This document shows, one piece after another, positions 4,343 to 56,228 of a DNA stretch of 64,000 nt. Made by a program: the position numbers and the translations under genes. Location of the stretch: contig CAVQBA010000005.1 of the NCBI GenBank assembly GCA_963710605.1, positions 64,001 through 128,000 of the forward strand, in the 5' to 3' direction. This DNA is from an uncultured cyanobacterium (GTDB lineage: Bacteria > Cyanobacteriota > Cyanobacteriia > Cyanobacteriales > Cyanobacteriaceae). Position 1 is the stretch's first letter; each line of letters opens with the position of its first letter. The notes under the pieces are model-generated. The model was not told the DNA's origin. It was given only the letters and a program-made list of their open reading frames with translations, and ran no database searches.

Positions 4343-4344
4343 TA

Positions 4345-5829: not shown

Positions 5830-5838
5830 GTAGATAAA

Positions 5839-7473: not shown

Positions 7474-8643
<1,170 letters not shown>

Positions 8644-8683
8644 ATCTAAATATTATTATTTAGCTAAATTAAATTAAAATATC

Positions 8684-8721
8684 GATCCCCCCAACCCCCC
8701 TTACAGAAGGGGGGCTTTTTC
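8684..8721 (+). terminator. GC hairpin plus T-run after petH (repeat-derived, probable intrinsic terminator)
   Basis: CCCCCCTT-ACAG-AAGGGGGG followed by CTTTTTT. Confidence 0.55.
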
Positions 8722-37037: not shown

Positions 37038-37239
37038 TATAGCGTTTCCCATACTTGTGAAGTACAGTTAGCGATCGACAAGTCCCCATAAATAAAAGCG
37101 AAGCATCCTTAAATTTCCCCCTTACAAAGGGGAGGGGCTGTCACCTGAATTGATTTCAGGTGCTTGTAAGCCCCGTGGCAAGGGGGATGGGGACCAGTGG
37201 GGGATCGATATGTACCTCGTAATGGTGATAATTGCTATA
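37038..37239 (-). mobile_element. MITE with TATAGC...GCTATA ends, inverted copy with several nested inserts
   Basis: Flanks identical to 26063-26171; interior has modules shared with 4911-4961 and 21265-21282. Confidence 0.85.
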
Positions 37240-37462
37240 ATTACTATTTCATCTATTTATTAAAACGACTATAGCTATCCTACTATTAAATCATTTGTGA
37301 AAAATTAACTAATAATTGAAAGTAATAAAATTATTAAATATACTGACTTCTGACTCTTTTCTCCACAAAAAAGAAGGGAGCAAGCAAAGCATTTTGCCTA
37401 TCCCTTAATTCTTTGTTTTATCTTATTGTCTATCTGTTTTTACTTAATAAAGAGCTTTCAAA

Positions 37463-38020
37463 TTAACTAGAAGTTTGAGTGGCAAACATTTCTTTTAACT
37501 TGTTTAATTCATCAGCCCAACGTGGGTCAGGTTGTACAGATTGAGATACTGAGCCACTACGAGAAGTTTTACTTTTATCAGTATTTTTACGACCTTTTTT
37601 ACCTTTATTTTCATTACGACGAGGTTTGTTCTCATCGTTACTAAGTGTAGGCGTACTAGTAGGAGTAGCTGTTGTTGTTGTTTGCTCTTCATCAGAGGTA
37701 GTTGCATTTTCAGCTTCACCTTCTGGGGTATTGTTTTTACGAGGTAATGCTTTTTCAATTAACAAGATAAAATCGCTACCATCTTCATCCTTATAGACTT
37801 CACCATTATAAATAAAGGGCTTTTCATTATATTTACTAATAAATTCTTCTGCGGCTTCATCAGTCGGTACGGTAACAAAGCCAAACCCACGACATTCTTT
37901 TTTCTTTCTTTCTCTAATTAGTTTGGTGGAGAAAGAAGGTTCAAATTCACTGAACATTCCTTCAAAATTTTCTTTTTCGATCGCCGCTTTAGGTAACTTA
38001 ACATAAAGACGTACAGACAT
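37463..38020 (-). CDS. RRM-domain RNA-binding protein (long cyanobacterial Rbp type)
   Basis: MSVRLYV, RNP1 CRGFGFVTV, IEKALPR, C-terminal QPDPRWADEL; GGAGG upstream of ATG 38020. Confidence 0.85.
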   Translation of the reverse strand: MSVRLYVKLPKAAIEKENFEGMFSEFEPSFSTKLIRERKKKECRGFGFVTVPTDEAAEEFISKYNEKPFIYNGEVYKDEDGSDFILLIEKALPRKNNTPEGEAENATTSDEEQTTTTATPTSTPTLSNDENKPRRNENKGKKGRKNTDKSKTSRSGSVSQSVQPDPRWADELNKLKEMFATQTSS

Positions 38021-38447
38021 TTGGTTTTCCTCCATTGGTGTAATTATTTTTGCTAAGTAAATTTATAAAATTACTACAGATTAACTCTGATTTTCACAAT
38101 AAATGAGCTAGTAAACTCGCATTTGAGTAACTAACTCTAGATGATTGATTTATCAACTTGATTTCATCTTGAGATGAACTAGTTAAAATCATTGACTTTG
38201 TTCTTATTAATTTATTTATGAGAGTTTTTTTAATCGTTTCTTTAATATTAAGAATAATCTGAACTTTTACTGTTTTACTTTATATTCTTGTATTTGCCTG
38301 ATCACCCTATATCGTATCACACTTGTTATCTTCTGTTAAGTATTATTTCTTATCACTTTGGCTTGATTAGTTATTTGTTATCTTAAAAATTGAGTAATTT
38401 TAGCGTTAACAGCGATCGTCAAATAATAATCGATTATTGCTCAAACT

Positions 38448-40043
38448 TTAAGCGATCGAACTTAATTTTAAATTAGGGTGATCAGCTTGTAACTGATTCA
38501 CATTCCAAGCATTACGGAATAGTAACACAGGACGATCGAGTGCATCTTTCACTGTCATGGTATTAAAAACACGTCCAATTTCAGCCAAAGCATCCCAACC
38601 ATCAACTACCCAACGAGCAACACTGTAAGGTAAAGGCTCTAAATTAGTTTCCACATTATATTCACTCTGCATTCTAAATTGTACTACTTCAAATTGCAAC
38701 TGCCCTACAGCGGCTAAAATTGGATCACGAATAAAATCATCCGCCGCCGACATTACTTGAATCGCACCTTCTTCTTGTAATTGTCCGATTCCTTTTTGAA
38801 ATTGTTTAAATTTAGAAGGGTTAGGATTTTTTAAATAACAAAATAATTCAGGAGAAAACGAAGGAATACCTTCATACTCTAGTTTTTGACCTAAATAAAT
38901 CGTATCACCGATCGCAAATACCCCTGGGTTATTCAAACCGATAACATCACCAGGATAAGCGTGAGCAATTGATTCTCTACCAGAGGCAAATAATTTTTGG
39001 GGGTGAGACAAACGCACTGTCTTACCAGAGCGAGCATGAGTCACAGTCATATCTTTTTCAAACTTGCCTGTACAGACTCGGATAAATGCAACCCTATCTC
39101 TATGTTTCGGGTCCATATTTGCCTGTAATTTGAAGACAAAACCACTAAAATCAGGATGAGTCGGTTCTAAATTACCTATATTTGATTTTCTAGGTGTGGG
39201 TGATAAAGCATAATCTAGAAAAGATTCTAAAAATAAACGCACCCCAAAATTAGTCATTGCTGAACCAAAAAATACAGGTGTCATTTCTCCTTTATGAATT
39301 GCTTCTAAGTCAAGTTTTTCCCCAATCTCATCAAGAATTTCAATTTCTTCAAGGGTTTTGGCGTATAATTCTTCACCAATATATTCGACTAAACGATCGT
39401 CTCCTGCGGGGATTAAAGTTTCGGGAATCTCTTTACTACCATGAGCGATTCTTTCAAATAAATGAAACATTTTTTGACGACGATCGTAAACACCTTTAAA
39501 GTAATCACCATTACCAATCGGATAATTAACAGGATAAGTCTTTAAACCTAACTCTTGTTCAATCTCATCTAATAACTCTAACGCCTCTCGCCCTGGACGA
39601 TCCATTTTATTAACAAAAGTAAAAATGGGCAACTTACGTAATTTACAAACTTCAAACAACTTACGAGTTTGAGGCTCTAAACCCTTAGCCGCATCAATTA
39701 ACATCACCGCATTATCTGCCGCCGCTAAAGTACGATAAGTATCTTCACTAAAGTCTTGGTGTCCGGGAGTATCTAGTAGATTGATTTGATAATCTTCGTA
39801 GGCAAATTGTAAAACAGTAGAAGTAATTGAAATACCTCTTTGTTTTTCTAATTCCATCCAATCAGAAGTTACTCTTCTTTGTTCACCACGAGCTTTAACC
39901 GCACCCGCTTGATGAATAGCACCCCCATAAAGTAAAAGTTTTTCGGTCAGGGTTGTTTTACCCGCATCAGGGTGAGAAATAATCGCAAAATTACGACGTT
40001 TATTAACAGCAGAGATTAATTCTTGTTCGATCGTTGCAGACAT
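38448..40043 (-). CDS. prfC: Peptide chain release factor 3
   Basis: [50 protein letters not shown]. Confidence 0.97.
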
Positions 40044-40293
40044 TAATTATTTGTTTAATAGTTGATATTGGATAGTTAATAGTTAGTTTTATTTTTACCG
40101 AAGAAGCGTATTGCTCAACTAGCACAAATTATTTTACACCAAAACTAATTAATTTTTTCGTGTTTAAGGCGTAAAAGTTCTTACCGCATAAACTAAAACT
40201 TAGATTAAACGACAATTTTAGTTGTAATTAACAAAAAGAAATGCTTTAAAATATTGATATAATTTTTTTATTATATCTTATAACATTATTCTT

Positions 40294-40911
40294 ATGACTA
40301 AAATAGAAGAAATATCAGGAAATAACATAACAGAAATATCAGAAAAACAAATAGAAGAACAGAAATTACAAGAAATTTACTTAATTTTATCTCAAATGTT
40401 TAAAAGAGAAGAAATAGCGGCTAAAGCTATTGTTGGTTGTTTGTATGATATTGCTACGGTTAATGTGGTTAATCGATATGTTGGTATTTGGGGAATCAAT
40501 CAAACTCTTAAATATCTAGCACGTTTTCCACGCCCTATTGTCAAAACCTTAGCTGTTAAGTTATATGTGCAACCTCGATGCCCTAAATTGATCACTGATT
40601 GGTTTTTTACTTTAGTCGAATTTCCGATTCAAACGGCTCAAATAATAGAAGGAGATAGAACGCATATTGAAGTAGAAGAAGAGCAAAAACAGATTCAAGT
40701 TGAGACTTTACCCGTTCGTTTAGAGCAAGAAGAGCAAAAGCAAAGAAAAATTAAGTCTTTGCAAGGACAAGTCAGAATATTGACAGGTACATTAGTCACC
40801 ACGATTGTTGTTTTTAGCGGTAGCATTTTGTGGGTTGCTAATAACTTACAAGTTAATCCACTAGATTTATTAACCACAACTCAAGCAAAAACTGTTGATT
40901 ACGAGCAGTAA
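40294..40911 (+). CDS. Hypothetical protein with C-terminal coiled coil and TM helix
   Basis: 205-aa ORF; hydrophobic ILTGTLVTTIVVFSGSILWV. Confidence 0.65.
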   Translation: MTKIEEISGNNITEISEKQIEEQKLQEIYLILSQMFKREEIAAKAIVGCLYDIATVNVVNRYVGIWGINQTLKYLARFPRPIVKTLAVKLYVQPRCPKLITDWFFTLVEFPIQTAQIIEGDRTHIEVEEEQKQIQVETLPVRLEQEEQKQRKIKSLQGQVRILTGTLVTTIVVFSGSILWVANNLQVNPLDLLTTTQAKTVDYEQ

Positions 40912-41515
40912 TCACTAAATAGTCTCTGAGTAGATATCTACCTAGAATTACTTTTTGTTTCAGTTAATCAAAGATTTGGTACGTTAATCAAGCAGTATAT
41001 ACATTGAGCAATCGATCGTAACTGCTAATTTTTTTGCTCAAATTTCACCTATATATCTAACTATGAGACTTCTAGTCTTGATAAATTTATCGGTTGTGGG
41101 AACGATCATCTTAAGGAATACGTCTTAATTAGTAGATGTTAAATAGAAAATCAATTTAAATATATCATATAAGTAAATCTAAACTGATTAAATAGTAGTT
41201 TTAAAATAAAATTAACCGCTTAATTTTAATATGATATAATAGAAATTAAGTGATGATAAGAAAAGCTATTTTTACTCGATGAGTAAGAACAATTATAATA
41301 TGAAAAATTCATTCTATGTGAGTGAAATACTGACTGAAGAATATAGTCATATCTCAAGATTTATCCCAACAATACCATGACTTATTGAGTTGTCTAAATA
41401 TTTTAATCTCAGCTTAATAATTGTTCGTTATGATAGATAAATTAATGTTCAATACAAGTAAGCGAAAGTATTTATAAATCTTGTTTATTATGATCATTTA
41501 TCGGGAGTTGCCTTA

Positions 41516-41971
41516 ATGATTTCAATTTCATCACCCCCCACTATACGTAGTTGGAAAACTGTTAGTTTTGCTTCGACACTGCACCTTTATCCCATCCTCG
41601 ATTTGCTTCTCAAAAAAATCCCGACACAACTTCATCCAGAAATTAGATTAGGATTGCAAGAAGCATTAGTAAACGCCGCTAAGCATGGTAACAGACTCGA
41701 TCCTTGTAAAACAGTAAAAGTCAAGTTTTGCTATAAAAAAAGTGAATATTCATGGATAGTATGCGATCAAGGCGACGGTTTTGAGCAAGAATCAAATTAT
41801 TCTTTTGATGATGAAAATTTACCTGCGGTGGAAGCTGAAAACGGCAGAGGATTCTGTCTTTTACATCAAATTTTTGATCGTGTTACTTGGAATCCTCAAG
41901 GTACAAAAGTAGAACTATACAAACAAGTTGATCATAACTTACCAAATTATTCTCGATTTAAATTTTATTAG
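41516..41971 (+). CDS. pmgA: Anti-sigma-factor-like ATP-binding protein (PmgA-type)
   Basis: SFASTLHLYPILDLLL, EIRLGLQEALVNAAKHGN, DQGDGF, ENGRG. Confidence 0.82.
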   Translation: MISISSPPTIRSWKTVSFASTLHLYPILDLLLKKIPTQLHPEIRLGLQEALVNAAKHGNRLDPCKTVKVKFCYKKSEYSWIVCDQGDGFEQESNYSFDDENLPAVEAENGRGFCLLHQIFDRVTWNPQGTKVELYKQVDHNLPNYSRFKFY

Positions 41972-42055
41972 ATTTTGAGCATTGAAACTAAAGTTATTAG
42001 CTCATAGTTTAATAGTCATTAAAATTTAATAAGTACTAATCACAGATAAAACAAA

Positions 42056-42349
42056 TTATGATTGATTAGGTATTTTTTTATGCCCATGAGAAGGGCAAGG
42101 AAGAGGTTTAATACTTTTATCTAACCATCCTTGTGCTTGGCTAATTCTTTCTAAAGCTTCTTGCGTTTCATCGTTTAAGAGATAGACTAAACCAGAGGCT
42201 AGTTGTTGTAAAGCTTGGGCTTTACGATCGTTTTTTAGTTTATGCCAATCATAGCTACTAATAGTGAGTTTTAAAGCAAGTAGTTGTGCTAATTCTAACT
42301 CACTTAAATTTTGCTCGGTAGAATTATTAACTGGGGATTGAGTATTCAT
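42056..42349 (-). CDS. Conserved cyanobacterial protein (DUF6439-like)
   Basis: LELAQ...DWHKLK...GWLD...PCPSHG; convergent with pmgA. Confidence 0.7.
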   Translation of the reverse strand: MNTQSPVNNSTEQNLSELELAQLLALKLTISSYDWHKLKNDRKAQALQQLASGLVYLLNDETQEALERISQAQGWLDKSIKPLPCPSHGHKKIPNQS

Positions 42350-42398
42350 GTGGTTATAATTAAGTACAATAAATAATGTAATCGTTTTTTATTGTAAG

Positions 42399-42761
42399 AT
42401 GTCTAACGAACAAAAAGCTTCCGAATCCGCAACACAAGTTAGTATAGAAGAGCAGATTACTGAGATAGAAGCCTCATTAGACAAAATAAAACAGCGTTAT
42501 CAACAAATAGAAATAGATAATCTCAGAAAAACTGAATTAATCGAGCAAAAATCGGCAATAAAAGAAAAACTCCCAAAAAATAAACAAGATTCTCTCAAAA
42601 GTGAATTGCAATACATCGAAGACGAATTAAACGAGATAGAAGTACGTTTAGAAAGCGAATTATTTAAATGGAGTAATTTTATTGAACCCTTTTGGCAAAT
42701 AGTCCGTTTTGTCGGGATCGGGATTGTGATAGGTTGGTTTTTAAATGTTTATAATGGCTAG
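42399..42761 (+). CDS. Coiled-coil protein with C-terminal TM helix
   Basis: Heptads, then LES...EPFWQIVRFVGIGIVIGW. Confidence 0.7.
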   Translation: MSNEQKASESATQVSIEEQITEIEASLDKIKQRYQQIEIDNLRKTELIEQKSAIKEKLPKNKQDSLKSELQYIEDELNEIEVRLESELFKWSNFIEPFWQIVRFVGIGIVIGWFLNVYNG

Positions 42762-42801
42762 TTTTTAAAAAATCAAAACCTAGATTATTAGTTAAGACTG
42801 A

Positions 42802-43149
42802 TTAATGACGATGAGGTTGTTTGACTATATCGATCGTACCATCACGAGTATATTCAAAAATATAACGATTATTTTCTCTCAACAAGTAAGTTTTGAGTAC
42901 ATCAAAATTATTTTTAAAAGCTATTTTTTCATATTCCCAATATTCCCAACATTTACCCGGTGCGAGAGAAAAATTTTTTCGAGTATTATAATCTTCATCA
43001 AACATGGTAAAACCATGAGTCACTTTAGTATAGTTGCAGATATAAAAACCATCATCAGTATGATCAGCCAAAGCTGATTTAGTTGTCACATTAGAAACGG
43101 CTAAGGCACATACTAAACTAGTAGAAAAAGCAATCAACTTCTTGTACAT
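42802..43149 (-). CDS. Small putative secreted protein
   Basis: Signal peptide MYKKLIAF...SALA followed by an aromatic-rich beta-type domain with two Cys. Confidence 0.6.
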   Translation of the reverse strand: MYKKLIAFSTSLVCALAVSNVTTKSALADHTDDGFYICNYTKVTHGFTMFDEDYNTRKNFSLAPGKCWEYWEYEKIAFKNNFDVLKTYLLRENNRYIFEYTRDGTIDIVKQPHRH

Positions 43150-43414
43150 AAAAATCAACGATTATTTTTGCGATATTAACTGATACATAATAACAAGTCT
43201 ATAGATTAGTCCTAGTCTTAATGATGATAAGTAATTGTGAATTGTAATGAATATTGATAATTGTTTACTTATTTTAATTACTTTAAAAGTCAAATAGATA
43301 CTGTTATCAAAAAAAGAAGATGTAAATGAAATACTGTTCTTGTCGTAAAATAGAGCATTTTTTGATTATAGTTGAGATATAACGGTATTTAAATATCAAC
43401 TATCAACTACTTAA

Positions 43415-45619
43415 ATGAGTATCAATAAAACTACTCAAATTCTCAGTATTATCGAAAAGCGTCGCCCTCTCGCTCTGCAAATCAAAAATGTTGAGGATAA
43501 TCTTCGCTCTCTTATCAATACCTTAATCGATCTGGAAAGTTATAAAAACCAATTAATAACCAAAATTGATGAATCTCATATTGTCGGACGTTTACAAGAA
43601 ATAGATTGCTCAAAAATCCAAACCGAGATAGAAACCGAGTTATTAGCCTTAGCCAAACTAAAAGGACGTTTTGAACGTGATACTCTTAATATTGGTGTTA
43701 TCGGTAGAGCAAGACAGGGTAAAAGCCGTTTACTTCAAAGTCTGACAGGGCTAACTAGTGCGGAGATTCCTGATGGTGATTTACAAGATTGTACAGGTGT
43801 TCGCAGTACTATTCATCATAATGCCAATGTGGAAACTTATGGCGAAGTTTGGTTTTATTCAGTGCAATCGTTTCTTAATCAAATTATTATTCCTTATTAC
43901 GAAAAATTACAACTAGGTTCTCGTCCTGCTAATTTGGAAGTCTTTAAGCAAAATCCATTGCCACCATTACCAGAGAATTTGAAAGGATATGCTAACGCCG
44001 AAGCAATGTATGAGCATCTTAGACGTTATCACGAGCATTTCAATCGATATTCGTCTTTACTCCAAAGTACTTCTCCTCGCCGCATTAGTAAAGAGGAAAT
44101 AAGGCAATATGTTGCTCAAGATGATAGACAAGGAGAACGTATTTATCTCAATTATTTAGCGGTTAGAGATGTCAAAATCACTTGTCAGTTTCCTGATGAG
44201 CAAGTTGGTAAAATCGCCCTGATAGATATGCCGGGGTTAGGTGATACAGGAATAGGTGATGAAGAGCGTTTAGTTAAAACATTAGGAGAAGATGTCGATC
44301 TAGTTTTACTAGCAAGGATGCCTAAACCGGCGGGGGATTCTTGGACGAGAGAAGATACTCAGCTTTATGACTTAGCCAAAGATTCTTTGATTGAGTTACC
44401 TTTTGAGCAATGGTCTTTTTTAGTACTTAATCATCTTAAAGCACATCCTAAATATGGTGATAATTTTACCGCTTGTCAAGGGTTTGTACAAACGATGAGT
44501 CAAAAAGGAATCAATGTCGCTAATTATGTGATTGCCGATTGCTCTAACCAAGAAGAGGCAGGGGCATTATTAGATTTAATTTTAAATTATATGCAACAGC
44601 AAATAGTCGGTTTAGATCGTTTATATGCTCGTACTTGTCAAGAAAGATTGATGATGCTTCAGGCGACAGTAAATGCTGAGTTAGTTAAAGCACAAACTGT
44701 TTTAGGAGAGATAAGCGATCGAGATAAATGGTATCCTTTATTCTTGATGTTGTTTAATGATTTGTGGAGTAGTTTAACTAATAATTTAGAAAACTTGCTC
44801 GAAGAATTACGAGAAAAACGAGATCAACAAGATTGGGATTTCAAACAAAAAGTAGATAAAGCCTTAGAAGCTTGTCGGCAAGATACAGGTATTCCTGCGG
44901 TGACAGAAATTGAAAGAATCGGCAAACAAGAAAAAGGTTATCCTAATGCTTATTACCAATTACTTAATCAAATTCGTCCTCATTTATCACAACATTTTTT
45001 ATTACTTGACGAAGGATTAAAAAAAGGTATAGATAAAGTAAAAACTGAAGTCGCAGAAGTTATCGCCGATAGTGGTAGTTTACAAAATATGACTACTGCT
45101 ACTGAGATTGAATTTTTAGAGCAGATGACAGAATTAATTCCTGAATCTTTAACTCAACTAAAATTAGGATTTACAATTTTAACTAATTTTACTTTGCAAT
45201 ATCGAGGAATGATTCAACACCGTATTCGGCAACATTTAGATAACCTTGTACCGAACGAAACAGATTTACAATTATCGACTTCACCTACTGCTCAAGAAGT
45301 CTCAGATTTACTACATACAGCTCATGCTGAGGCTTTATATGCTTGTGAAGGGGCATTAGATGATTTGTTAGCTGAACCATCTCAGGCGGCGTTTGCGATC
45401 GTGGAGGAGTTTTTAGATCAAATTTTACGGGCAAAAGAGGCAAAAGATCAATGGCGTATTTTGACAGAAGAATTTCGATCGCAAATTTGGCGTGATCAAT
45501 TCACTCAATTAGGAGAAAAAACCCGAACCAGAAAACAATGGTTAGAGTTAGTGGCTACTGCTGTAAGTCATAATCAAATAAGTGCTTGGCAATTTTTAGA
45601 TATACGAGGAGAAAATTAA
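43415..45619 (+). CDS. Dynamin-like/TRAFAC P-loop GTPase with long helical N- and C-terminal regions
   Basis: G1 GRARQGKS, G2-like DCTG, G3 DMPG, G4-like VLNH; 734 aa. Confidence 0.8.
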   Translation: MSINKTTQILSIIEKRRPLALQIKNVEDNLRSLINTLIDLESYKNQLITKIDESHIVGRLQEIDCSKIQTEIETELLALAKLKGRFERDTLNIGVIGRARQGKSRLLQSLTGLTSAEIPDGDLQDCTGVRSTIHHNANVETYGEVWFYSVQSFLNQIIIPYYEKLQLGSRPANLEVFKQNPLPPLPENLKGYANAEAMYEHLRRYHEHFNRYSSLLQSTSPRRISKEEIRQYVAQDDRQGERIYLNYLAVRDVKITCQFPDEQVGKIALIDMPGLGDTGIGDEERLVKTLGEDVDLVLLARMPKPAGDSWTREDTQLYDLAKDSLIELPFEQWSFLVLNHLKAHPKYGDNFTACQGFVQTMSQKGINVANYVIADCSNQEEAGALLDLILNYMQQQIVGLDRLYARTCQERLMMLQATVNAELVKAQTVLGEISDRDKWYPLFLMLFNDLWSSLTNNLENLLEELREKRDQQDWDFKQKVDKALEACRQDTGIPAVTEIERIGKQEKGYPNAYYQLLNQIRPHLSQHFLLLDEGLKKGIDKVKTEVAEVIADSGSLQNMTTATEIEFLEQMTELIPESLTQLKLGFTILTNFTLQYRGMIQHRIRQHLDNLVPNETDLQLSTSPTAQEVSDLLHTAHAEALYACEGALDDLLAEPSQAAFAIVEEFLDQILRAKEAKDQWRILTEEFRSQIWRDQFTQLGEKTRTRKQWLELVATAVSHNQISAWQFLDIRGEN

Positions 45620-45622
45620 TCA

Positions 45623-46612
45623 ATGCAAGAATTACAAGTAACCATGTTAGGTCCTAGCGGGGTCGGTAAAACAACGCTTTTAACCGCAGTTTACGATCAA
45701 TTTGAAGAAAATATTGGAGCGACTGATTTAGAGTTTAAACCTGATGACGAAAGTTTGGGTATTATTGATGATAATTTGATTGCTTTAAAAAGTTTAACCG
45801 ACGTTTATGAAGCCAAAGGTAGAACAGGAATTGAAGGTACAGAAGCGATCGCAGGTCCTGAATCTTTACGCTCTTTTTTATTCGGTTTAGGCAAAAAAGC
45901 TCAAACACCATCAATGCAAATCCGTTTTCGTGATTATCCCGGTGGTTATCATGAATCAACCGCTTCTGGTAGTGAAAGAAAATTTGTCAAGGAGTTGTTA
46001 TCCGAATCGGCTGCTGTTTTAATAGCGATCGATGCACCTGCTTTAATGGAGCGTAATGGGAAATATCATAATCAAATTAATCGTCCTGATCAAATCAAAG
46101 ATCTTTTTCGTTTAGCGTATCAAGACTTAGACTCTCCTCGTTTAGTTATTTTCGCCCCGATTAAATGTGAAAAATATCTAAGGAATAAAAAGTCAACTCA
46201 AGAATTAATCGATCGAGTTAAAGAAGGATACGATCGACTTATTAATTATTTTAATGCCGAACAACTTAGCCCTCATATCGTTAGTGTTGTTACACCTGTG
46301 CAAACAGTCGGTAGTGTTGTCTTTTCTCGTTTAGAAGTTGATGAGGATAATAACCCTCGTTTTTTCTTTCGTAAAGTCAAACATGATGCAGAATATAACC
46401 CCCAAGACAGTGAACAACCGCTACGTTACTTATTGCGATTTTTACTCGCACTGCATCTTAAACAACGTAATACATGGGGAATATTTAACTTTTTAAGAGA
46501 TTGGTTAAAATTAGATGATCATCTTAAAGATGCCGTCGCTCAATTTGCTAGAGGTTGCAAAACTAACAATGGTTTTGAAGTCTTAAAAGGAGAAAGTTTA
46601 CTTAAAATTTAA
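45623..46612 (+). CDS. Small TRAFAC-type GTPase domain protein
   Basis: G1 GPSGVGKT, G3 DYPGG, G4-like IKCE; starts 3 bp after the upstream stop. Confidence 0.8.
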   Translation: MQELQVTMLGPSGVGKTTLLTAVYDQFEENIGATDLEFKPDDESLGIIDDNLIALKSLTDVYEAKGRTGIEGTEAIAGPESLRSFLFGLGKKAQTPSMQIRFRDYPGGYHESTASGSERKFVKELLSESAAVLIAIDAPALMERNGKYHNQINRPDQIKDLFRLAYQDLDSPRLVIFAPIKCEKYLRNKKSTQELIDRVKEGYDRLINYFNAEQLSPHIVSVVTPVQTVGSVVFSRLEVDEDNNPRFFFRKVKHDAEYNPQDSEQPLRYLLRFLLALHLKQRNTWGIFNFLRDWLKLDDHLKDAVAQFARGCKTNNGFEVLKGESLLKI

Positions 46613-46631
46613 CTTGAAATAGTATAAAAGC

Positions 46632-46787
46632 GATCCCCCTAAATCCCCCTTAAAAAAGGGGACTTGAAAATAAGAAATTTATTTTATAATGAACGCAAAT
46701 AGTATTCAAAAGCGATCGTTTACAATCAACTCTCTCCCTCTCCCTCTTCCTCTCTTTTCTCTGCGTACTCAGCGTACTCTGCGGTTT
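46632..46787. repeat. Cluster of small dispersed repeats inside the GTPase operon
   Basis: CGATCCCCCTAAATCCCCCTTAAAAAAGGGGACTT and CTCTGCGTACTCAGCGTACTCTGCGG. Confidence 0.7.
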
Positions 46788-46963
46788 AACATCACAAACA
46801 ATAAACATCATCAATCAGTTCATTTTATGTAGATAATAATTATAGCTGTTCGTAAAATTATAAATACATATTTTTAGGGTGACTTTAAGCTAAAGAGTTT
46901 ATAGCTTATAGCTAAAAACAAGATAATTAATACATAACTTCATATAAATATAAATTACCAATC

Positions 46964-48046
46964 ATGACAATATACATTCAAAGTCGAGGTAAACCACAAC
47001 CTAAAGACTATAAATGGCAAAAAGTAAGAGCGAATAATTTAATATTTGAAAGATCCACCTATACTAAAAAGAATAAAAGTAGGAGAATTAATCGAAAGTA
47101 AAAAATATTCTCTTGTTGTCGCCAGAAACGATCGTGAATTAGTTTTTTTGGTGACAGGTTTATCATAGCGACAGAATTGATTATCAAAATCGGCAGATTC
47201 GTAATACTTTGGCTTGGGTAGAAATGGATACACCTGAAAATGAACAAATTATTCGCTCTCTTGCGGTATTGGCTTTAACTAATCCTCAGTTATTAGAAGA
47301 TAAAGTCAATCAAAGCGTTATGGAAACTGATATAGTGGTAATCATGATTATCCTTTTGAAGTCGATCGAGAGCAAATATGAGCAATTACCTTATATTGTA
47401 GATGTCCAAAATAATGATAATGCCAATTTGAATAATTACTTTGGTAACAGTAGCTTAGAATTGCAAACTCAAATTGGTTTAGAGTTACAAGATAATTGTT
47501 TGCCTCATCGAGATGGTATCTTGGTTCTACTAACTACTTTAAAAACTGAATCTAGCTTACAAAATTATCAAGTATGGCGTGGTTTATCAACCAAAATTCC
47601 TAATCAAGAATTGAGATTAGTTAAAACTCAAGCATCACAAATCGAAAAAAAAAAGCCAATACTGGTCACTACTCCTCTTACAGTACGATCGTATTACTAA
47701 TTCTAATTTTCGGTTAAATCCTCAGCCAAATAGCGAGTCAGTAGAGAACAATAATAATCCTCTTGACTGGGAAAATGTCTTTGATGAGGTAACACAATTT
47801 TTTAATAAAGGATTGGATGTTAATAGCTTAGAGAAACAACAAAAAGAAGAGTTATATTGCTTAGTGGAATTGATGAGTAAATTAATTCGATTAAAACAAA
47901 AAGCAAGTAGAGGAAAACTAAATCAACAAGATTTACAAGTGCTAGAACAAACTCATCAGGTAGTCTTAAAATATCATCGTTCGATCGTCCAAATATTGCA
48001 AACTAATAACGATAACTCTAATTGCGATCGAGAATGGATTCCGTGA
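46964..48046 (+). pseudogene. Multiply frameshifted third gene of the GTPase operon (GTPase-associated, probably membrane-anchored)
   Basis: Pieces in shifting frames: MTIYIQSRGKPQPKDYKW / YSLVVARNDRELVFLVTGL / SDRIDYQNRQIRNTLAWVE / VWRGLS..EKK(A10) / YWSLLLL-STIVLLILIF / LNPQPNS...DREWIP*. Confidence 0.65.
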
Positions 48047-48228
48047 ATATAAACCGATCGATATCAATACCGTAGGGGTTGAACACTGTTCAACCCTTAT
48101 TGTTTAATGACAAATCCTTAAGGGTGGGAATAATACAAATTACAACAAAATTAATAATTTTTTGCAAGTATTAACGCGATCGCATTAGAATTGTAATAGG
48201 TATGATACCGAAAATAATTAAGGAAATA

Positions 48229-50160
48229 ATGACTAACAGTTCAACAGTAGAGAAAAAAACCTCAAAAGCAGAAAAAAGAAAAGAGGATAGTAATTTTTTA
48301 AGAGAGCCAGTCGCCACCGAATTAAAGCAAGATACAACCCATTTTACTGAAGATGGGCTTCAAATTCTTAAATTTCATGGCTCTTATCAACAAGATAATC
48401 GTGACAATCGTAAAAAAGGGCAAGAAAAAGATTATCAATTCATGTTACGTACTCGTAGCCCAGGTGGATTTATTCCCCCAGAATTATACCTAACCCTCGA
48501 TCGATTATCTGAAGAATATGGTAATCATACTTTAAGAGCAACCACCAGACAAGGTTATCAAATCCACGGTATTCTCAAAAAAGATCTCAAACCAGTGATC
48601 AGTAATATCGTTAAAAGTATGGGTTCTACCTTAGGTGCTTGTGGCGATCTCAACCGTAACGTCATGGCACCTCCCGCTCCTTTTAGAGACCGTCCTGAGT
48701 ATCGATATGCTTTAGAATACGCCGATAAAATAGCTGATCTTTTAACTCCTCAAACAGATGCTTATTATGAGATTTGGTTAGATGGAGAAAAAGCGATTAC
48801 AGCAGAAGAAGCACCTGAGGTTAAAGCCGCACGAGAAAAAAATGGTACAGGAACAGTTTTTCATGATAATCCTGAACCAATTTATGGTACTTACTATATG
48901 CCTCGTAAGTTCAAATGTGGGATAACTGTACCAGGAGATAATTCGATCGATGTTTATACTAACGATTTGAGCTTGGTTGTTATTACTAACTCTAAAGGTG
49001 AACTACAAGGCTTTAATGTTCTAGCAGGTGGTGGTTTAGGGCGTACTCATCGCAAAGAACAAACTTTTGCTCGTACAGCTGATGAAGTCGGTTTTGTTGC
49101 TAAAGACGATATTTACGATTTAGTTAAAGCTGTCATTGCTACTCAAAGAGATTATGGCGATCGTGTCGATCGTCGTCATGCTCGTTTAAAATATTTAATG
49201 AACGATTGGGGTGTAGAAAAATTCCGTACCAAAGTTGAAGAATATTTAGGCAAAAAACTCAAACCTTATAAAAAACTTCGTAAATGGAAATATGAAGACT
49301 ATTTAGGTTGGTACGAACAAGGAGATGGTAAACTCTTTTTTGGTGTATCTGTCGAAAATGGACGCATCAAAAATGAAGGCAAATTCCAACTTAAACAAGC
49401 CTTAAAAGATGTCATCGAAAAATATAACTTACCAACTCGTTTGACACCTAATCATAATATTGTTCTTTACGAAATTGAGCCTCAATGGCAAGAAGATATT
49501 AATAATATCTTTTTAAATCATGGTATTATTATTGATCCTAAAGATATCAATCATTTAACTCGTTATACCATGGCGTGTCCTGCTCTACCTACTTGTGGTT
49601 TAGCAACAACCGAATCAGAAAGAATTATCCCTAATGTTACCGAAAGAATCGATATTTTATTAGCTAAACTAGGTATCGCTAAAGAAACCTTCGTAATCCG
49701 TATGACAGGATGTCCTAATGGATGTGCTAGACCATATATGGCAGAATTAGGTTTTGTCGGTGATTCCCCTAATGTGTACCAAATGTGGCTTGGTGGATGT
49801 CCAAATCAAAGCCGTTTGGCTAGAACTTATGTTGATAAACTTCATCTTGATGATTTAGAAACCTTTTTAGAGCCTTTACTTGTCTTTTTCCGTAATGATA
49901 AAAAAAGAGGTGAAAGTTTCGGTGATTTTTGTAATCGGGTTGATTTTCCTGCTCTTAAAGAATACCAAGAAAAATACGATCCTTCTATGGCTCAATTGTC
50001 TCAAGGTAGAAAATCTCAGCAAAAAAGAAACGAACATCGTATTAGCGTCAATGAACAATGGTATCAAAAATTAAAAACTATTGCCGGGGAAGAAAATAAA
50101 GCAATGAGTCAAATCGTTTCTGATGCTCTAGATGCTTATTTTTCATCAACCACAGATTAA
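48229..50160 (+). CDS. sir: Ferredoxin-sulfite reductase
   Basis: [28 protein letters not shown], siroheme/FeS motifs [11 protein letters not shown] and [12 protein letters not shown] before ATG 48229. Confidence 0.95.
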
Positions 50161-50204
50161 TAATCGATCGTTAATTTTTAATTGAAGAATTATATTTCAC
50201 TTTT

Positions 50205-50232
50205 AAAGCCCTATAATTTGGGGCTTTTTTTT
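50205..50232 (+). terminator. Probable intrinsic terminator after sir
   Basis: AAAGCCC-TATAATTTG-GGGCTTT followed by a T-run. Confidence 0.6.
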
Positions 50233-50906
50233 GGACGATCGAGCGGAAGGCTTGGCACTGTGCGATCGAGTTTTTAAGCTTTAATATTACTCTATTTGAA
50301 CAACTAAAATATTCAATAAATATTATTTTTATCCGTTTTTTTAAGTTACTCAAAAAATATCTTTACTCAAACTCAAATTGATTATAACCATACTTATATT
50401 TAGCTAAAGGATATTTTAATTAATCAACGGGTAAATTTAGTTTAAATGATTGATACATTCAATAATTATTTTACTTTTTCCCTTTGCCCTTAGCACGAGT
50501 GCCCCTTGTGCTATATCTAAATCAGCTAATTATTGAAGTAATTAATTAACTCATCAATAGAATTTAAAACCGATCGCTATGTTTGTAAGTGAAAATATTA
50601 TTAATTCTGCCTAAGCTCTTTAAATATATAAAAGAAAAAACACTACAAATATTATTGATTTATCGATTCTTAACTAGTACATAGTTTCGTCAGTTGAGTA
50701 AATTTAATTCGAGCTATTAGATCGACAATTATACCAACATAAAATTATTGAGTTTCTCAATTTAACAATTGTTTTAATGATTTTAAACTGTAAAAAATAA
50801 TACAAATCACTAATTAATATTAGTTAAAATTTATGATAACTTTTAAACAATGCAAGAAATTTGCTAAAGTGAATAAAATTGTTGTAATTTTAAGACAAGA
50901 TAAACT

Positions 50907-53900
50907 GTGATTAACCGAGATTCTATACCATTATTTATCTTTCATACGCAAAAGGCAATTTCTTCATTTATAAATAATGAAATTTTTACGGCTAACTTAC
51001 ATCTAAATCAAGCTAAAGAATATATCGATCGTGTCAATATCGATCAAATACGTGAATCGTACTTTTGTTTTTATGATTCTTTAGTAGCTATCGCCATGAT
51101 AGATAACAATGAGACTGATTGGTTATCGCAACAAGAAAAAGTCGAAGCAAATCAAAATCAGTTACTACAATTTAACCAAGACTTTGACCATAATTATTTA
51201 TCTCAGTGGCAATTAGTAGAAGCCGAAAAATATCGAATTATCGATCAAAAATTAGAAGCGATCGAATTATACGACAATGCTATCGCTACAGCAAAAGAAA
51301 AAGAAGATTTTTTAATCGAAGCCTTAGCTAACGAGTTAGCCGCCAAATTTTATCTAGCTTGGGGAAAAACAAAAATAGCTAAAGTATATTTAAAAGAGGC
51401 TTATGATTACTACCATAGTCAAGGTTTAATCGCTAAAATTGTTTATTTAGCTCAATATTATTCCGAATTACTCAACCCCAGCATTAATCATTTTTTGGAT
51501 TCAGAAGATGGTTGTTATATACCTACTGATATTAGCCCTGTTGGTATTTATCATTGTGATGCTCAAGGGCAATGTATTTATGCTAATTCCAAAACTAGAG
51601 AATTAAAAGGCTTAACTCTAAAAGAAATCTTAAATGATGGTTGGACAAAAAGATTACATCCAGACGATCGTTTACCTGTGTATAATAGTTGGCTTTCTTT
51701 TGTCAAGCAATCTAAACTAAACTTAAACTTAGAATTTAAACAGGAAATGCGTTTTATTCATCCTGAAAAAGGTCTAGTTTGGATTTACTCACAAGCAATG
51801 GCTCAACGGAATGAAAAAGGAGAAGTAACGGGTTTTATCGGTATTTCTGTTGATATAACTGACGTTAAAGAATTAGAAATTGTTCAACAAACTTCGGCGA
51901 ACAAACTCGAAGATATTCTTGACAATAGTGCGGCAGTTATTTCTTGTTTCCATCTATATCCTGATTTGAGTTGGCAATATCAATATTATTCTGAGGGTAG
52001 CAAAAGTATCTTCGGTTACAGTCATTCAGAATTGTTAGCCGACCAAAAGTTATGGCTTTCTCGAATTATACCTGAAGACATAGAAAATACTATTTTTCCG
52101 AGTCTCAAATCGACTCAAGAGAAAAGAATCAGTACAGGAAATCTTGTTTTTCGTTTTCGACATAAAGATAATTCGATTCGTTGGATTAGTGAAAGTTTTA
52201 CTGCCAGACAGCATTTAGAGCAAGACTGTTTAATTGTCACGACTATTAGTATTGATATTACGGCTAAAAAACAAGCCGAAGAAGCCCTCAAGCATTCAGA
52301 AGCAAAATTACGATCGATTTTAGAAAATGCCCCTAATTATATTATCCAAGTCGATCGACAACACAATATTTTATTTATTAATCGTTTAGGAGAAGGATAT
52401 ACTTTAGAAAGCGTAATTGGTCATAGTGTGGAAGAATTTACTCTTCCTCAAAGTCACGAAATTCAAGCAGAAGCGATCGCTCAAGTATTTGATACAGGTA
52501 AAACACAAACAGTAGAAATTGAGGCACTTGGAGACAACCAAGTCAAGGCTGTTTACGAAACAAAATTTGTACCTGTGATCAAAAATCAACAGGTAGAATC
52601 AGTAATTATAATGGCAACGGATATTACTGCCAGAAAACAAGCACAAGCAACGATCGAAAATTTGGTTATCGATACATCCTCAGTCACAGGAGAAAACTTT
52701 TTTCCTGTCTTAGCTCAACAAATTGCTCAAACATTACAGATATCTGATGTTTTAGTCTCCCGTAAAAATAACCAACAACTAGAAACTCTAAGTTGGTATA
52801 GCAATGGTGAGATAAAAGACAATTGTGTTTATCCCATTTGTCATAGCCCCTGCGAAACAACCATCGAACAATCAAGCCATTACTGTATCCAAAATGTACA
52901 GCAACAGTATCCTCAAGATCGAGAATTAAAGGATATGAATGCCGAAAGTTATATGGGAGTAGCATTAAAAAACAAAACAGGAGAGGTAATTGGGGTATTA
53001 TGTATTTTCGATCGACAACCTTTACCAAAAAATTATCTATTTATTCAAAATATCTTAAAAATTTTTGGTACTCGTGCCGCCGCAGAATTAGAAAGACTAG
53101 AAGTAGAAGAGGCTTTACGTAATCTCAATCAGGAATTAGAAGAAAGAATCAATCGACGTACTTTAGCATTAGCTAGCTCACAAAAAGATTTGAGAACTAT
53201 TTTTAACAGTGTTGATGAAGCAATTTTTATTCATGATTGGCAAGGGAATATTTTAGATGTTAACGCACGAGGATTAGAATTATTTACGACGACTAAAAAA
53301 CAAATTTCTCAAATGACATTTGTTCAATTATTACAACCGCCCTTCACAGAAAAACAACTATCCGATAATTATCAAAAATTAAAACAAGGAGAAAACCTAA
53401 ATTTAGAGTGGCAAGCAAAACGTCCTTATGATAACTTTATTTTTGAGGTAGAGGTATCTTTAAAAAAAATTACCATTAACAATATTGACATAGTTTTAGC
53501 AGTAGTAAGAGATATAACCAAGCAAAAACAAGCAAAAGTGCAATTACAAGAATCTCGTAATATGTTGAAGTTGGTGTTAGACACTATTCCTCAAAGAGTT
53601 TTTTGGAAAGATCTTAATTTAAAATATTTAGGTTGTAATTCTACCTTTGCTCAAGATACTAATTTAACCTGTGAAGAAATTATTGGGAAAAGTGATTTTG
53701 ATTGTATTTGGAAAAATTGGGCTCAAAGATATGAAGATGATGATGCAATAGTAATAAATAGTCTTATTCCCAAATTAAATTATGAAGAACCAACATTTAT
53801 TAATAATGATCAAAAAAGATGGGTACGAACTAGTAAAATACCTTTAACTAATAGCCAAAATGAAGTTATTGGTGTTTTAGGTTGTTACGAAGATATTACC

Positions 53901-56228
53901 GAACAAAAACAAATAGAAGAAAAATTAAAAGAAAACCAAAGGCGTTTACGATTTGCCTTAGAAGGTTCAGAAAACGGCGTTTGGGATTGGAATATTGAGC
54001 AAAAAACAGTGTTTTATTCCCCTCAATGGAAAAAGATGCTCGGCTACGAAGTAGATGAAATAGAACATACTTTCGAGCAATGGGAAAGTTTACTTCATCC
54101 TGAAGATAAAGATTCATGTTCTCGGTTAATTAATCAACATCTTGATGGTATTACCTCAATCTACATTAACGAACACCGTTTACGCTGTAAAGACGGAAGT
54201 TATAAATGGATAATGGCAAGGGGAAAGATACTTGAATGGACAGATGATGGTAAACCCTTAAGAACATTTGGTACTCATACCGATATTAGCGATCGTAAAT
54301 TAGCTGAAGAAAAACTAATAGAAGCTCAACGATTTTCTCAAAGAATAACTGAAAATACACCGAACATTATTTATATTTATGATTTAGTTGAAAATCGTAA
54401 TATATATTGTAATCGTGAACTATTTCAAATCCTTGGTTATAGTCCTGAAGAAGTTCAAAACATGGGTTCGCAACTATTTGAGTTTTTAATTCATCCTGAT
54501 GATTTACAAAGACTAATTCAGTATCAACAACAAATTTTAAAGCTTAAAAATCATGAAGTTTGCGAAATAGAATATCGTATTCGTCATGCCGATGGTAGTT
54601 GGCGTTATTTACTTGATCATGTTAGTGTTTTTAGACGAGACCAAAATGGTTTAGTTATTCAGTATATCGGTTCTAGTCAAGATATTACCGAACGTAAACA
54701 AACAGAATTATTACTCAAACAAGTCAATCTTGAATTAGAAGCAAGAGTCAAACAACGTACGATCGAATTAGAAAAAGCCAAAGAAAAAGCCGAGTCAGCT
54801 AATCAAGCTAAAACTAGTTTTTTAGCAAACATGAGTCATGAGTTACGTACTCCCTTAAATGGAATTATGGGTTATGCCCAAATTTTACAAACATCTAACT
54901 ACATACTAGTAGAAGATAAAAAAAATATACAGCTTATTTATCAATGTGGTTCTCATTTGTTAAACCTAATTGAAGATATTTTAGATATTTCAGCGATCGA
55001 AGTTGGTAAAATGCAACTATATCCTCAAGAGTTTTTTCTGCCTAGTTTATTAAAAGAAGTCGTCGTAGTTTGCCAACTCAAAGCCCAAAACAAAAATTTG
55101 GAATTAATTTATACACCTAACCCTTTAATTCCCAAAATTATTATTCAAGATCAAAGACGTTTAAAACAAGTTTTACTTAATTTACTTAGTAATGCCATCA
55201 AATTTACTCGTCAGGGAAAAATTACTTTAAAAATTGATTTCAAGCCTGATTTATTACTAAACAAAAAGCTTAATCAAGAAATTAGTTTAACGGCAAATAG
55301 TGGTATGCTCTATTTTGAAGTAAAAGATACAGGTATCGGACTTTCTACTGAGCAATTAAAAACTATTTTTCTGCCCTTTGAGCAAGTTGGTTCAGTCGAA
55401 CAAAAATCTCATGGTACAGGATTAGGTTTATCTATTTGCCAAAATATTCTCAAGTTGATGAATAGTGAATTAAAAGTTGAAAGTAGTTTAGGTAAAGGTA
55501 GTACTTTTTCTTTTACTTTACCCGTTGCTACATCTAATCAACAATCACAAAACATATACTCAATTTTACCTAGTAATATTATCGGTTACGAAGGTCAAAA
55601 AAAGAAAATTTTGATCGTGGACGATCGTATCAACAACAGAAAAATACTCGAACAGATATTACAACCGATCGGGTTTATTGTCAAAGAAGCTAGTGATGGT
55701 ATTGAAGGTTTAGAGAAGGTAGTTTATTTTGAACCAGATTTAATTATTCTTGATTTGGTTATGCCGAATATGGACGGTTGGAAAATGCTTGAACATTTAC
55801 GCCAAATGCCTCAAGGAAAAGATACACAAGTAATCATTTATACAGCCAATGTAGCTAATAAGCAAGAACTTGAACGATCTACTTTACTTGATTGTTGTGC
55901 TTTTATTTCTAAACCTGTTAATATTGCTACGTTACTAAATCAAGTTAGTCAAGCCCTTAATCTATCTTGGATTTATGATACTTCCTCAGCGATCGAAGAA
56001 AATGATTTGAGTGAAAATACAATTATTGATTTTCCACCCCAAGATATTTTAGTCAAATTGTACGATATAAGTAAACAAGGTCGTTTGAGTTCACTAATAA
56101 AAGAAGTTAAAAAACTGACAAAATCAGATATCAAATACCAAGCGTTTGCAAATCATCTTCAATATTTAGCTGAAGAGATGGAATTCAAAGAAATTGAACA
56201 GTTTTTATCTAGACAGATTACACAGTAG
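50907..56228 (+). CDS. Large multi-PAS/GAF hybrid histidine kinase
   Basis: Repeated PAS/PAC units (HPDD...DIT), GAF (ESYMGV...GVLCIFD), H-box MSHELRTPLNG, G2 GTGLGL, receiver LDLVMP. Confidence 0.93.
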   Translation: MINRDSIPLFIFHTQKAISSFINNEIFTANLHLNQAKEYIDRVNIDQIRESYFCFYDSLVAIAMIDNNETDWLSQQEKVEANQNQLLQFNQDFDHNYLSQWQLVEAEKYRIIDQKLEAIELYDNAIATAKEKEDFLIEALANELAAKFYLAWGKTKIAKVYLKEAYDYYHSQGLIAKIVYLAQYYSELLNPSINHFLDSEDGCYIPTDISPVGIYHCDAQGQCIYANSKTRELKGLTLKEILNDGWTKRLHPDDRLPVYNSWLSFVKQSKLNLNLEFKQEMRFIHPEKGLVWIYSQAMAQRNEKGEVTGFIGISVDITDVKELEIVQQTSANKLEDILDNSAAVISCFHLYPDLSWQYQYYSEGSKSIFGYSHSELLADQKLWLSRIIPEDIENTIFPSLKSTQEKRISTGNLVFRFRHKDNSIRWISESFTARQHLEQDCLIVTTISIDITAKKQAEEALKHSEAKLRSILENAPNYIIQVDRQHNILFINRLGEGYTLESVIGHSVEEFTLPQSHEIQAEAIAQVFDTGKTQTVEIEALGDNQVKAVYETKFVPVIKNQQVESVIIMATDITARKQAQATIENLVIDTSSVTGENFFPVLAQQIAQTLQISDVLVSRKNNQQLETLSWYSNGEIKDNCVYPICHSPCETTIEQSSHYCIQNVQQQYPQDRELKDMNAESYMGVALKNKTGEVIGVLCIFDRQPLPKNYLFIQNILKIFGTRAAAELERLEVEEALRNLNQELEERINRRTLALASSQKDLRTIFNSVDEAIFIHDWQGNILDVNARGLELFTTTKKQISQMTFVQLLQPPFTEKQLSDNYQKLKQGENLNLEWQAKRPYDNFIFEVEVSLKKITINNIDIVLAVVRDITKQKQAKVQLQESRNMLKLVLDTIPQRVFWKDLNLKYLGCNSTFAQDTNLTCEEIIGKSDFDCIWKNWAQRYEDDDAIVINSLIPKLNYEEPTFINNDQKRWVRTSKIPLTNSQNEVIGVLGCYEDITEQKQIEEKLKENQRRLRFALEGSENGVWDWNIEQKTVFYSPQWKKMLGYEVDEIEHTFEQWESLLHPEDKDSCSRLINQHLDGITSIYINEHRLRCKDGSYKWIMARGKILEWTDDGKPLRTFGTHTDISDRKLAEEKLIEAQRFSQRITENTPNIIYIYDLVENRNIYCNRELFQILGYSPEEVQNMGSQLFEFLIHPDDLQRLIQYQQQILKLKNHEVCEIEYRIRHADGSWRYLLDHVSVFRRDQNGLVIQYIGSSQDITERKQTELLLKQVNLELEARVKQRTIELEKAKEKAESANQAKTSFLANMSHELRTPLNGIMGYAQILQTSNYILVEDKKNIQLIYQCGSHLLNLIEDILDISAIEVGKMQLYPQEFFLPSLLKEVVVVCQLKAQNKNLELIYTPNPLIPKIIIQDQRRLKQVLLNLLSNAIKFTRQGKITLKIDFKPDLLLNKKLNQEISLTANSGMLYFEVKDTGIGLSTEQLKTIFLPFEQVGSVEQKSHGTGLGLSICQNILKLMNSELKVESSLGKGSTFSFTLPVATSNQQSQNIYSILPSNIIGYEGQKKKILIVDDRINNRKILEQILQPIGFIVKEASDGIEGLEKVVYFEPDLIILDLVMPNMDGWKMLEHLRQMPQGKDTQVIIYTANVANKQELERSTLLDCCAFISKPVNIATLLNQVSQALNLSWIYDTSSAIEENDLSENTIIDFPPQDILVKLYDISKQGRLSSLIKEVKKLTKSDIKYQAFANHLQYLAEEMEFKEIEQFLSRQITQ

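Follow-up and report, generated by a model that had tools for sequence, protein, structure and literature searches.

The locus and its decayed third gene

The window, by which we mean the whole stretch of 64,000 nucleotides analysed here (positions 64,001 to 128,000 of contig CAVQBA010000005.1, assembly GCA_963710605.1, from an uncultured cyanobacterium), carries between 43,415 and 48,046 three co-oriented genes, called A, B and C below, which we read as a partly decayed copy of a self-contained A-B-C cassette. Gene A (43415..45619, forward strand) and gene B (45623..46612, forward strand) were recognised in the list of open reading frames (ORFs) and by their motifs; both reading frames are complete and encode a putative dynamin-type large GTPase of 734 amino acids and a small, DO-GTPase2-like GTPase of 329 amino acids. 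The two are co-oriented and separated by three bases, as a preliminary description of this DNA had stated, and the motifs that it named, GRARQGKS and DMPG in A and GPSGVGKT, DYPGG and IKCE in B, are confirmed in the ORF list. They are followed by a spacer of 351 bp with short dispersed repeats (46613..46963), by the remains of gene C (46964..48046, forward strand) and, directly after these, by a terminator-like hairpin with a 13-pair stem (48072..48100, forward strand), which is likely the end of the original operon. The similarity between a contig of a same-genus genome and the window begins only at 48140, and together with the hairpin this indicates that the limits first drawn for the block bracket the original operon well.

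Gene C is a pseudogene. Its frame, which begins at 46964 with MTIYIQSRGKPQPKDYKW, runs for 45 codons to a stop, and the profile of the C family, run on the window DNA, matches in several frames: 46964-47068 corresponds to profile positions 2-37, 47049-47174 to positions 31-72, interrupted by a TAG, and 47167-47604 to positions 71-212. Intact C relatives, searched with tblastn, likewise map to the window in three frames. An A10 run (47645-47654) lies upstream of a transmembrane remnant of 10-12 hydrophobic residues (47682-47711), which is in a fourth reading and ends in a stop, and the helical (coiled-coil) tail persists as an ORF at 47813-48046 in a further frame. Taken in order, the frames of the remnant are 2, 0, 1, 0 and 2, i.e., at least four frame changes in addition to the premature stops. 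We take these frameshifts as real, because at least four of them fall within 1.1 kb while the neighbouring ORFs of 734, 652 and 1773 amino acids stay open. The preliminary description had rightly noticed a co-oriented third gene with its start, a remnant of a transmembrane helix and a helical tail, but it did not recognise the extent of the decay.

The gap of 351 bp between B and C compares with mostly a few tens of bases or less in intact cassettes. A search of the genome with the spacer (194 first-look candidates, 40 of them scored) gave, among the matches listed, at least 39 further copies of its repeats, 30-88 bases long and 77-97% identical. The host genome amounts to 3.93 Mb in 7 contigs, and the spacer segments at ~19-80 and ~127-193 recur on all seven; they resemble small intergenic repeats or repeats of the miniature inverted-repeat transposable element (MITE) type.

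Neither A nor B of the window is shortened, and both retain all the columns that are invariant in their alignments. At columns that are at least 90% conserved, however, window A deviates in 18 of 220, the highest count among 67 sequences with a median of 4, and five of its deviations are unique to it; one of these is H125D, adjacent to the invariant C126-T127. Window B deviates at 7 of 97 columns (median 2, rank 7 of 42), and the terminal branch of window A is 0.5 long versus a median of 0.1. Low G+C content and thin sampling may contribute to these deviations. Taken together, the excess substitutions, the long branch and the loss of C suggest a relaxed constraint on the local copy, which is probably inactive or heading for loss, and such erosion fits the gain and loss that characterise accessory systems.

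Distribution and protein families of the cassette

The ternary module that had been proposed from this locus proved to be real. The loci of nine relatives were fetched, and all nine carry A (720-745 amino acids), B (313-340 amino acids) and C. A scan for relatives of A in one genome per prokaryote species yielded 358 stretches, of which 77 loci were kept; 66 of these were informative, having at least 2.2 kb downstream of A, and 11 were too short. Of the informative loci, 57 have the complete series A-B-C, two have A and B and seven have A alone, so that the neighbourhood survey proposed at the outset revealed genes that do co-occur elsewhere. Chance falls far short of explaining this arrangement, given that the gene order repeats from locus to locus. 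A is split or cut short in at least two of the seven A-only loci, and at one locus (L061) A and B are 6.4 kb apart; other loci counted as A-only may hold large insertions of this kind. No fourth conserved gene was found across the cassette loci.

The hosts of the titled loci are cyanobacteria, with the exception of one contig from a metagenome-assembled genome (MAG) labelled 'Hyphomicrobiales'. This 6.6-kb contig (PXAW01000204.1) carries the full triad, and its A is sister to that of Thainema with a branch length of 0.06; a cyanobacterial contig that was wrongly binned is a more probable explanation than a copy from proteobacteria. A triad is also present in Nonomuraea gerenzanensis, where the family profiles match A at E 1.9e-210, B at 2.6e-95 and C at 6.2e-17. 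It lies unannotated at 7244196-7248404 of the replicon of this filamentous actinomycete and is the only clear non-cyanobacterial case.

The cassette is accessory and patchy, occurs in changing contexts and is sometimes plasmid-borne. Across the phylum, A was found in 31 of 401 genomes and 25 of 156 genera, with all 31 genomes in the order of the window, and homologues of B occur in 14 of 41 related genomes. Five genomes, that of the window among them, have two A matches. A near-full-length relative of A is present in eight plasmid records, seven of them cyanobacterial (one match spanning just 84% of A), while the eighth is the 11.85-Mb Nonomuraea replicon. On a FastTree phylogeny of 78 A sequences the family labels need 39 changes versus a minimum of 25, and window A stands beside copies from Leptolyngbyaceae, Calothrix and Oculatellaceae, apart from the copies of its own family. 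Mean pairwise identity over the same 53 triads is 58.6% for A, 51.8% for B and 38.4% for the N-domain of C, and the identity of B exceeds that of C in 99.7% of 1378 pairs; C evolves fastest, B next and A slowest.

A consists of an N-terminal stretch of ~90 amino acids, a G domain with GRARQGKS at 97-104, DMPG at 271-274 and N339, and a further ~430 amino acids with no detected domain; its orthologues are 52-75% identical to window A. The Dynamin_N family (PF00350) is matched by 19 of 21 A members at E ≤ 1e-3, with a best value of 1.3e-10, and the match covers ~135 of the 168 model positions in the members displayed individually. Window A itself scores 18.5 bits, under the cut-off of 27 bits. 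The assignment of A to the dynamin-type large GTPases has moderate evidence from this match, because the model also responds to ordinary GTPases in 13 of 14 control genomes. The highest mean hydropathy over 19 residues (Kyte-Doolittle) is 0.95, which argues that A has no transmembrane helix; A may still have an amphipathic membrane paddle. Neither the single sequence nor the profile of A had a significant match among PDB chains, the best being IRGb10 at the level of the P-loop (E 0.01), and NCBIfam gave weak P-loop matches only for the cassette proteins. Many residues are invariant in 21 A proteins, among them the five cysteines C126, C257, C354, C376 and C644 (window numbering), which form no CxxC pairs.

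The longer forms of A that were found are solely fusions of ~1300 amino acids, which carry at the N-terminus an ATPase of the AAA_35/STAND type together with a HEPN domain resembling that of Swt1; they fall into nine protein clusters. One of them (locus L038), with a HEPN_Swt1 match of 7e-30, is nested among the unfused forms in the A tree. The genome of the window holds a second system of this type on contig C6 (430000-442000, minus strand, 3089-10755 of that stretch), in which all of A', B' and C' are open. A' has 1333 amino acids and combines an AAA_22/AAA_16-type ATPase with HEPN_Swt1 and an A-like GTPase, and it is followed by a DO-GTPase2-like B' of 318 amino acids (35% identical to window B), a C' of 250 amino acids with no transmembrane helix and a pentapeptide-repeat protein of 425 amino acids. 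The HEPN/STAND fusions of A point to a function in conflict.

B reads as a TRAFAC small GTPase and a distant member of the DO-GTPase2 family. The DO-GTPase2 model (PF19993) is matched by 36 of 37 B members at E ≤ 1e-3 (best 1.4e-11), with 25.6 bits for window B, just under the cut-off of 27 bits, and 43.4 bits for the Nonomuraea orthologue; six of the 37 match MMR_HSR1. The family alignment has an invariant D-x-x-G that is not followed by glutamine and an invariant C-E at the position usual for NKxD. As there is no catalytic glutamine after DxxG, B would need help to hydrolyse GTP. The P-loop lies within ~12 residues of the N-terminus in most B proteins, and the N-terminal extensions of some members show no zinc-ribbon-like cysteine pairs in the alignment. 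Searches of PDB chains with the single sequence and the profile of B gave nothing significant.

Intact relatives of C are 240-440 amino acids long, the longest having 743, and in nine of them the start follows the pattern M-x-I-Y-[VI]-x-S-R-G with variations. The profile of the N-domain collects 585 representative proteins (50%-identity clusters) at E ≤ 1e-3 and 450 at E ≤ 1e-10, and in nearly all of the best 150 representatives the match starts at most 14 residues from the N-terminus. C, the anchor of the cassette, has no Pfam, NCBIfam or PADLOC family match and defines a sizeable family of its own. The conserved N-domain of ~205 residues, with the invariant positions W18, S41, R69, P171, W195 and R196 (Gloeocapsopsis numbering), is followed by a linker, a single transmembrane helix and a variable outer tail. 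The helix is predicted in 55 of the 57 C proteins of cassette loci; of the two exceptions one is truncated by the contig end and the other fell outside the motif-based test. Lys and Arg are richer on the N-side of the helix in 42 of the 55 and on the C-side in two, and this excess places the N-domain in the cytoplasm. The best 150 representatives divide into 112 with motif and helix, 21 with the motif and no helix, 16 that escaped the motif pattern and one that was too short. The outer part spans 0 to 455 residues and bears Ig-like He_PIG domains (five, two or one) in one clade, WD40 in its sister clade and coiled coil elsewhere. By helix prediction and charge distribution, C is a single-pass membrane protein with a cytoplasmic, conserved N-domain and an outer tail that changes by clade. 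The C domain occurs twice in tandem in one protein, and at one locus two C genes stand side by side.

The AlphaFold2 model of the Gloeocapsopsis C has a predicted local distance difference test (pLDDT) score of 88 and a predicted template modelling (pTM) score of 0.74, and its residues 1-112 are arranged as beta-beta-alpha-beta-beta-beta-alpha-alpha, which we take to be the order of the longin fold. A Foldseek check had been suggested for all three products; made for C, it found nothing at E ≤ 1e-3, but regulators of the longin/roadblock kind weakly lead its list (TagF, DENND10, GATOR1 and FLCN-FNIP2; best E 5.7e-3). With VIA-align the best match was an Asgard Roadblock-Longin domain (Z 4.9, 124 residues, root-mean-square deviation 4.6 Å), and the top rows, eight in a wide search and 18 in a second look, were all longin or roadblock domains from regulators of GTPases; in the second look GAF and PAS domains came next. 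These structural matches are weak (Z ≤ 4.9, 5-10% identity), in a score range that the tool rates as unreliable, and searching the C profile against PDB chains gave nothing significant. The model therefore offers a lead towards a longin-like fold of the N-domain.

Two variant forms were observed beside the standard cassette. Plasmid pSTA7437.02 of Stanieria cyanosphaera PCC 7437 carries at 92988-100894 (L102) an A-like dynamin family protein (36% identity), a DO-GTPase1/2-like GTPase of 389 amino acids and two proteins of 992 and 473 amino acids with no family, with an NB-ARC gene upstream and an IS4 transposase downstream. A distinct subtype, mostly from Nostocales (L034, L041, L042, L044, L045, L047, L048, L054-L057, L064, L066, L069, L082, L086, L087 and L094), has an A that is ~45% identical to window A, a B of ~424 amino acids with an insert of ~100 residues reading as coiled coil, and a C that starts with M-x-x-F-E-I-Y-V-K-T-S-A and whose domain ends in WRGFA; in five of its loci a conserved ORF of ~150-160 amino acids with no family follows.

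Relation to known systems and possible function

GTPase-centric conflict systems of the DO-GTPase/GAP1 type were described by Kaur et al. (2020, eLife, PMC7159879). The cassette is like them in that B matches the DO-GTPase2 model and the GTPase gene is directly followed by the gene of a conserved third protein that is not an enzyme. According to the accessible portion of that paper, N2-type GAP1 proteins often have, at their end, a transmembrane helix followed by cadherin/Ig-like domains, to which the helix and Ig-like outer tail of C correspond, and constant GTPase switch parts are likewise joined to a variable sensing part. In contrast, the second GTPase of the cassette is a Dynamin_N-type protein of ~730 amino acids that has no match to DO-GTPase1/2, B lacks N-terminal zinc ribbons, and no array of effector genes lies beside the cassette. 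Cyanobacteria are not among the host phyla named in that same portion of the paper. In the feature space of the ESM language model the GAP1-N1/N2 clusters are the named families nearest to the N-domain of C (0.77-0.82), which serves as a lead only. No relatives of a true GAP1 protein turned up in a scan of metagenomes, and no FNIII family was detected among 86 cassette neighbours at E ≤ 1e-5, although no search was aimed at GASH. We read the cassette as related to, and not a member of, the DO-GTPase/GAP1 systems.

Dynamin-like proteins are a further point of comparison. The dynamin/Leo operon contains two consecutive dynamin-like genes whose P-loop mutations abolish defence (Millman et al. 2022, 10.1101/2022.05.11.491447), and DynA of B. 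subtilis is a dynamin-like protein in phage defence (PMC12998192). As far as the available parts of these sources go, they share with the cassette a dynamin-type large GTPase and a proposed action at the membrane, and Leo is an accessory operon as well; unlike the cassette, they comprise two dynamin-like proteins or one two-headed protein and include neither a small GTPase nor a C-like anchor. The cassette has one dynamin-type gene only and hence does not belong to Dynamin/Leo (Eleos), and among the PADLOC models LeoBC matches A with just E 1e-4 to 0.095 over ~100 N-terminal residues, while LeoA gives no match.

Numerous dynamin-like proteins with a proposed role at membranes are present in cyanobacteria, as stated in the part of Jilly et al. 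(2018, PMC5827413) that was accessible, where clades are defined by the downstream gene and the 'HSR1' clade is followed by a GTP-binding protein. This recalls the MMR_HSR1 matches of some B members, the clades being compared by description only. On the other hand, the P-loop of A continues with RLLQSL and not with the L/INALL/I extension reported there, and that part of the paper does not mention a third gene. In the literature that could be covered, which did not include subscription journals, no description of the A-B-C triad was found.

A third comparison concerns the pairs of GTPases with longin/roadblock regulators, i.e., MglA-MglB, the Rag-Ragulator, FLCN-FNIP, GATOR1, Mon1-Ccz1 and DENN assemblies, and the Asgard Roadblock-Longin proteins. 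Such regulators are the best, albeit weak, structural matches of the C model, and the tandem C domain in one family member recalls the dimeric use of these folds; sequence similarity is lacking, however, and C differs in being membrane-anchored with an outer domain. Profilin-longin-like domains are said, from unpublished observations and in the part of the source at hand, often to accompany GTPases in candidate anti-selfish-element systems (10.64898/2026.10.19.760177).

We consider it slightly better than an even chance that the cassette is a membrane-anchored GTPase switch system for conflict or defence. C would be a receptor-like anchor whose outer tail senses an event at the envelope, most likely caused by a phage or another invader, and its cytoplasmic longin-like domain, a fold of the GAP/GEF-platform type, would set the nucleotide state of B. 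B could then recruit A to the membrane or release it there, and A would oligomerise and reshape or seal the membrane; the STAND/HEPN-fused variants of A could instead trigger RNA cleavage and cell suicide. More tentatively, and less likely than not, these steps could be generalised to a new class of transmembrane-signalling GTPase systems, in which a receptor with a rapidly varying outer domain and a cytoplasmic longin-type domain acts through a small GTPase on a dynamin-like enzyme or a STAND/HEPN RNase as an outside-in immune sensor of the envelope. In eukaryotes, a small GTPase, a longin-domain regulator and dynamin make up a trio to which this class would be the prokaryotic equivalent.

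The idea of a GTPase-centred conflict system, already put forward in the preliminary description, draws strength from the place of B in the DO-GTPase2 family and from the fusions of A to HEPN and STAND, but a number of results speak against it. The GAP1 models of Pfam match none of 39 C proteins at E ≤ 0.01, the GAP1-N2 model (PF20013) is present in one of 151 genomes of the window's order and never at a C gene, and hhalign of the C profile with one true GAP1 gives a probability of 0.1%. Phage records contain no match to A, and the proposed PADLOC check returned nothing significant, with no match better than E 4e-5 (an off-target JAB) and 1e-4 (LeoBC). Enrichment in defence islands did not materialise either, as about 17 of 86 immediate neighbours have conflict or mobile-element domains (Uma2 five times, GmrSD, PIN, CHAT twice, AAA_35 twice, VWA, transposases and PAAR), the rest being housekeeping or unassigned, and no defence island is evident; the 86 were left of 136 after short ORFs, contig-end ORFs and near-duplicates from close relatives had been excluded by hand. 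A is moreover strongly conserved, with a mean column identity of 66% that is above expectation for an arms-race component. To these come the response of the Dynamin_N model to ordinary GTPases and the weakness of the longin resemblance, which a common alpha/beta arrangement could explain.

Part of the same evidence would suit an accessory module for membrane remodelling or repair with no role in conflict, in which C marks the site, B is the switch, and tubulation, fusion or sealing of the cytoplasmic or thylakoid membrane is the task of A during envelope stress or development. The Dynamin_N-type nature of A, the predicted anchoring of C and the many cyanobacterial dynamin-like proteins with a proposed membrane function (PMC5827413, as far as seen) fit such a task, as do the mostly housekeeping neighbours, the high conservation of A and the silence of PADLOC. 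We nevertheless regard this module as unlikely, though a serious contender, in view of the patchy spread of A over 31 of 401 genomes, the plasmid copies, the paired A matches in five genomes including that of the window and the HEPN RNase and STAND ATPase parts to which A is repeatedly fused; the highly variable outer tail of C also fits the sensing of diverse outside entities better than a uniform cell task. Whichever role the family has, the local A and B could still be working, with C dispensable or supplied in trans by C' of the second system. Their intact length and invariant columns and the intact C-like gene elsewhere in the genome agree with this. C', however, is distant, as is B' from B, the N-domain of C evolves fastest and presumably bears the specificity, C is missing from just nine of the 66 informative loci, with A broken or short in at least two of these, and window A is the most deviant of its family at near-invariant columns, so that we think continued function of the local pair distinctly improbable. 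That the three genes are chance neighbours or belong to a characterised housekeeping pathway has nothing but the housekeeping flanks of the window in its favour; the three genes stand equally ordered and close together in 57 of 66 loci from many cyanobacterial families and, in addition, at one actinomycete locus, the genes flanking the window copy accompany no other cassette locus compared, and no pathway family of NCBIfam or Pfam was matched. A match to a characterised housekeeping pathway had been named as an outcome that would refute the ternary module. This explanation can be considered extremely improbable.

If the conflict switch is the correct reading, cyanobacteria and at least one actinomycete carry a three-part GTPase machine that has had no prior study, and a membrane-anchored, receptor-like branch would be added to the GTPase-centred conflict systems. 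Bacterial dynamin-like proteins would gain a defined upstream switch, and a simple bacterial model for the longin-type control of small GTPases would be at hand. The phage defences of cyanobacteria are poorly charted, and the cassette provides a concrete, clonable candidate system.

Flanking sequence

Upstream, the A-B-C block is flanked by a DUF6439 gene and an anti-sigma-type kinase gene. A 118-amino-acid ORF whose start resembles a signal peptide (42802..43158, reverse strand) also lies there; housekeeping genes and a small secreted ORF are hence present around the block as first described, but the secreted ORF is unrelated to the module. It was rejected as a component, being absent, like four other window neighbours, from all other cassette loci compared. 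Named relatives of the window genes are cyanobacterial in nearly all cases. The G+C content of the window is 33%, and GCGATCGC, presumably the HIP1 palindrome of cyanobacteria, occurs in it 12 times. Rfam had no match within 42700-48300, no tRNA genes were found within 36000-56000, and promoter-like sites at the locus are no more frequent than in shuffled sequence.

Downstream of the C remnant, a gene at 48202..50160 encodes what we take to be a ferredoxin-sulfite reductase. It is kept in all 20 family genomes searched, as is the DUF6439 gene, yet the two are not syntenic there. Its last ~45 codons form a ribbon-helix-helix-like stretch, and the matches in the 20 family genomes extend to residue 648-651; the sole PDB hint for this end of the product is the antitoxin EndoAI (E 0.32). 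About 750 bp further downstream, the ORF list contains a reading frame of 1773 amino acids (50907..56228), whose sequence suggests a hybrid histidine kinase with multiple PAS/GAF domains and a receiver.

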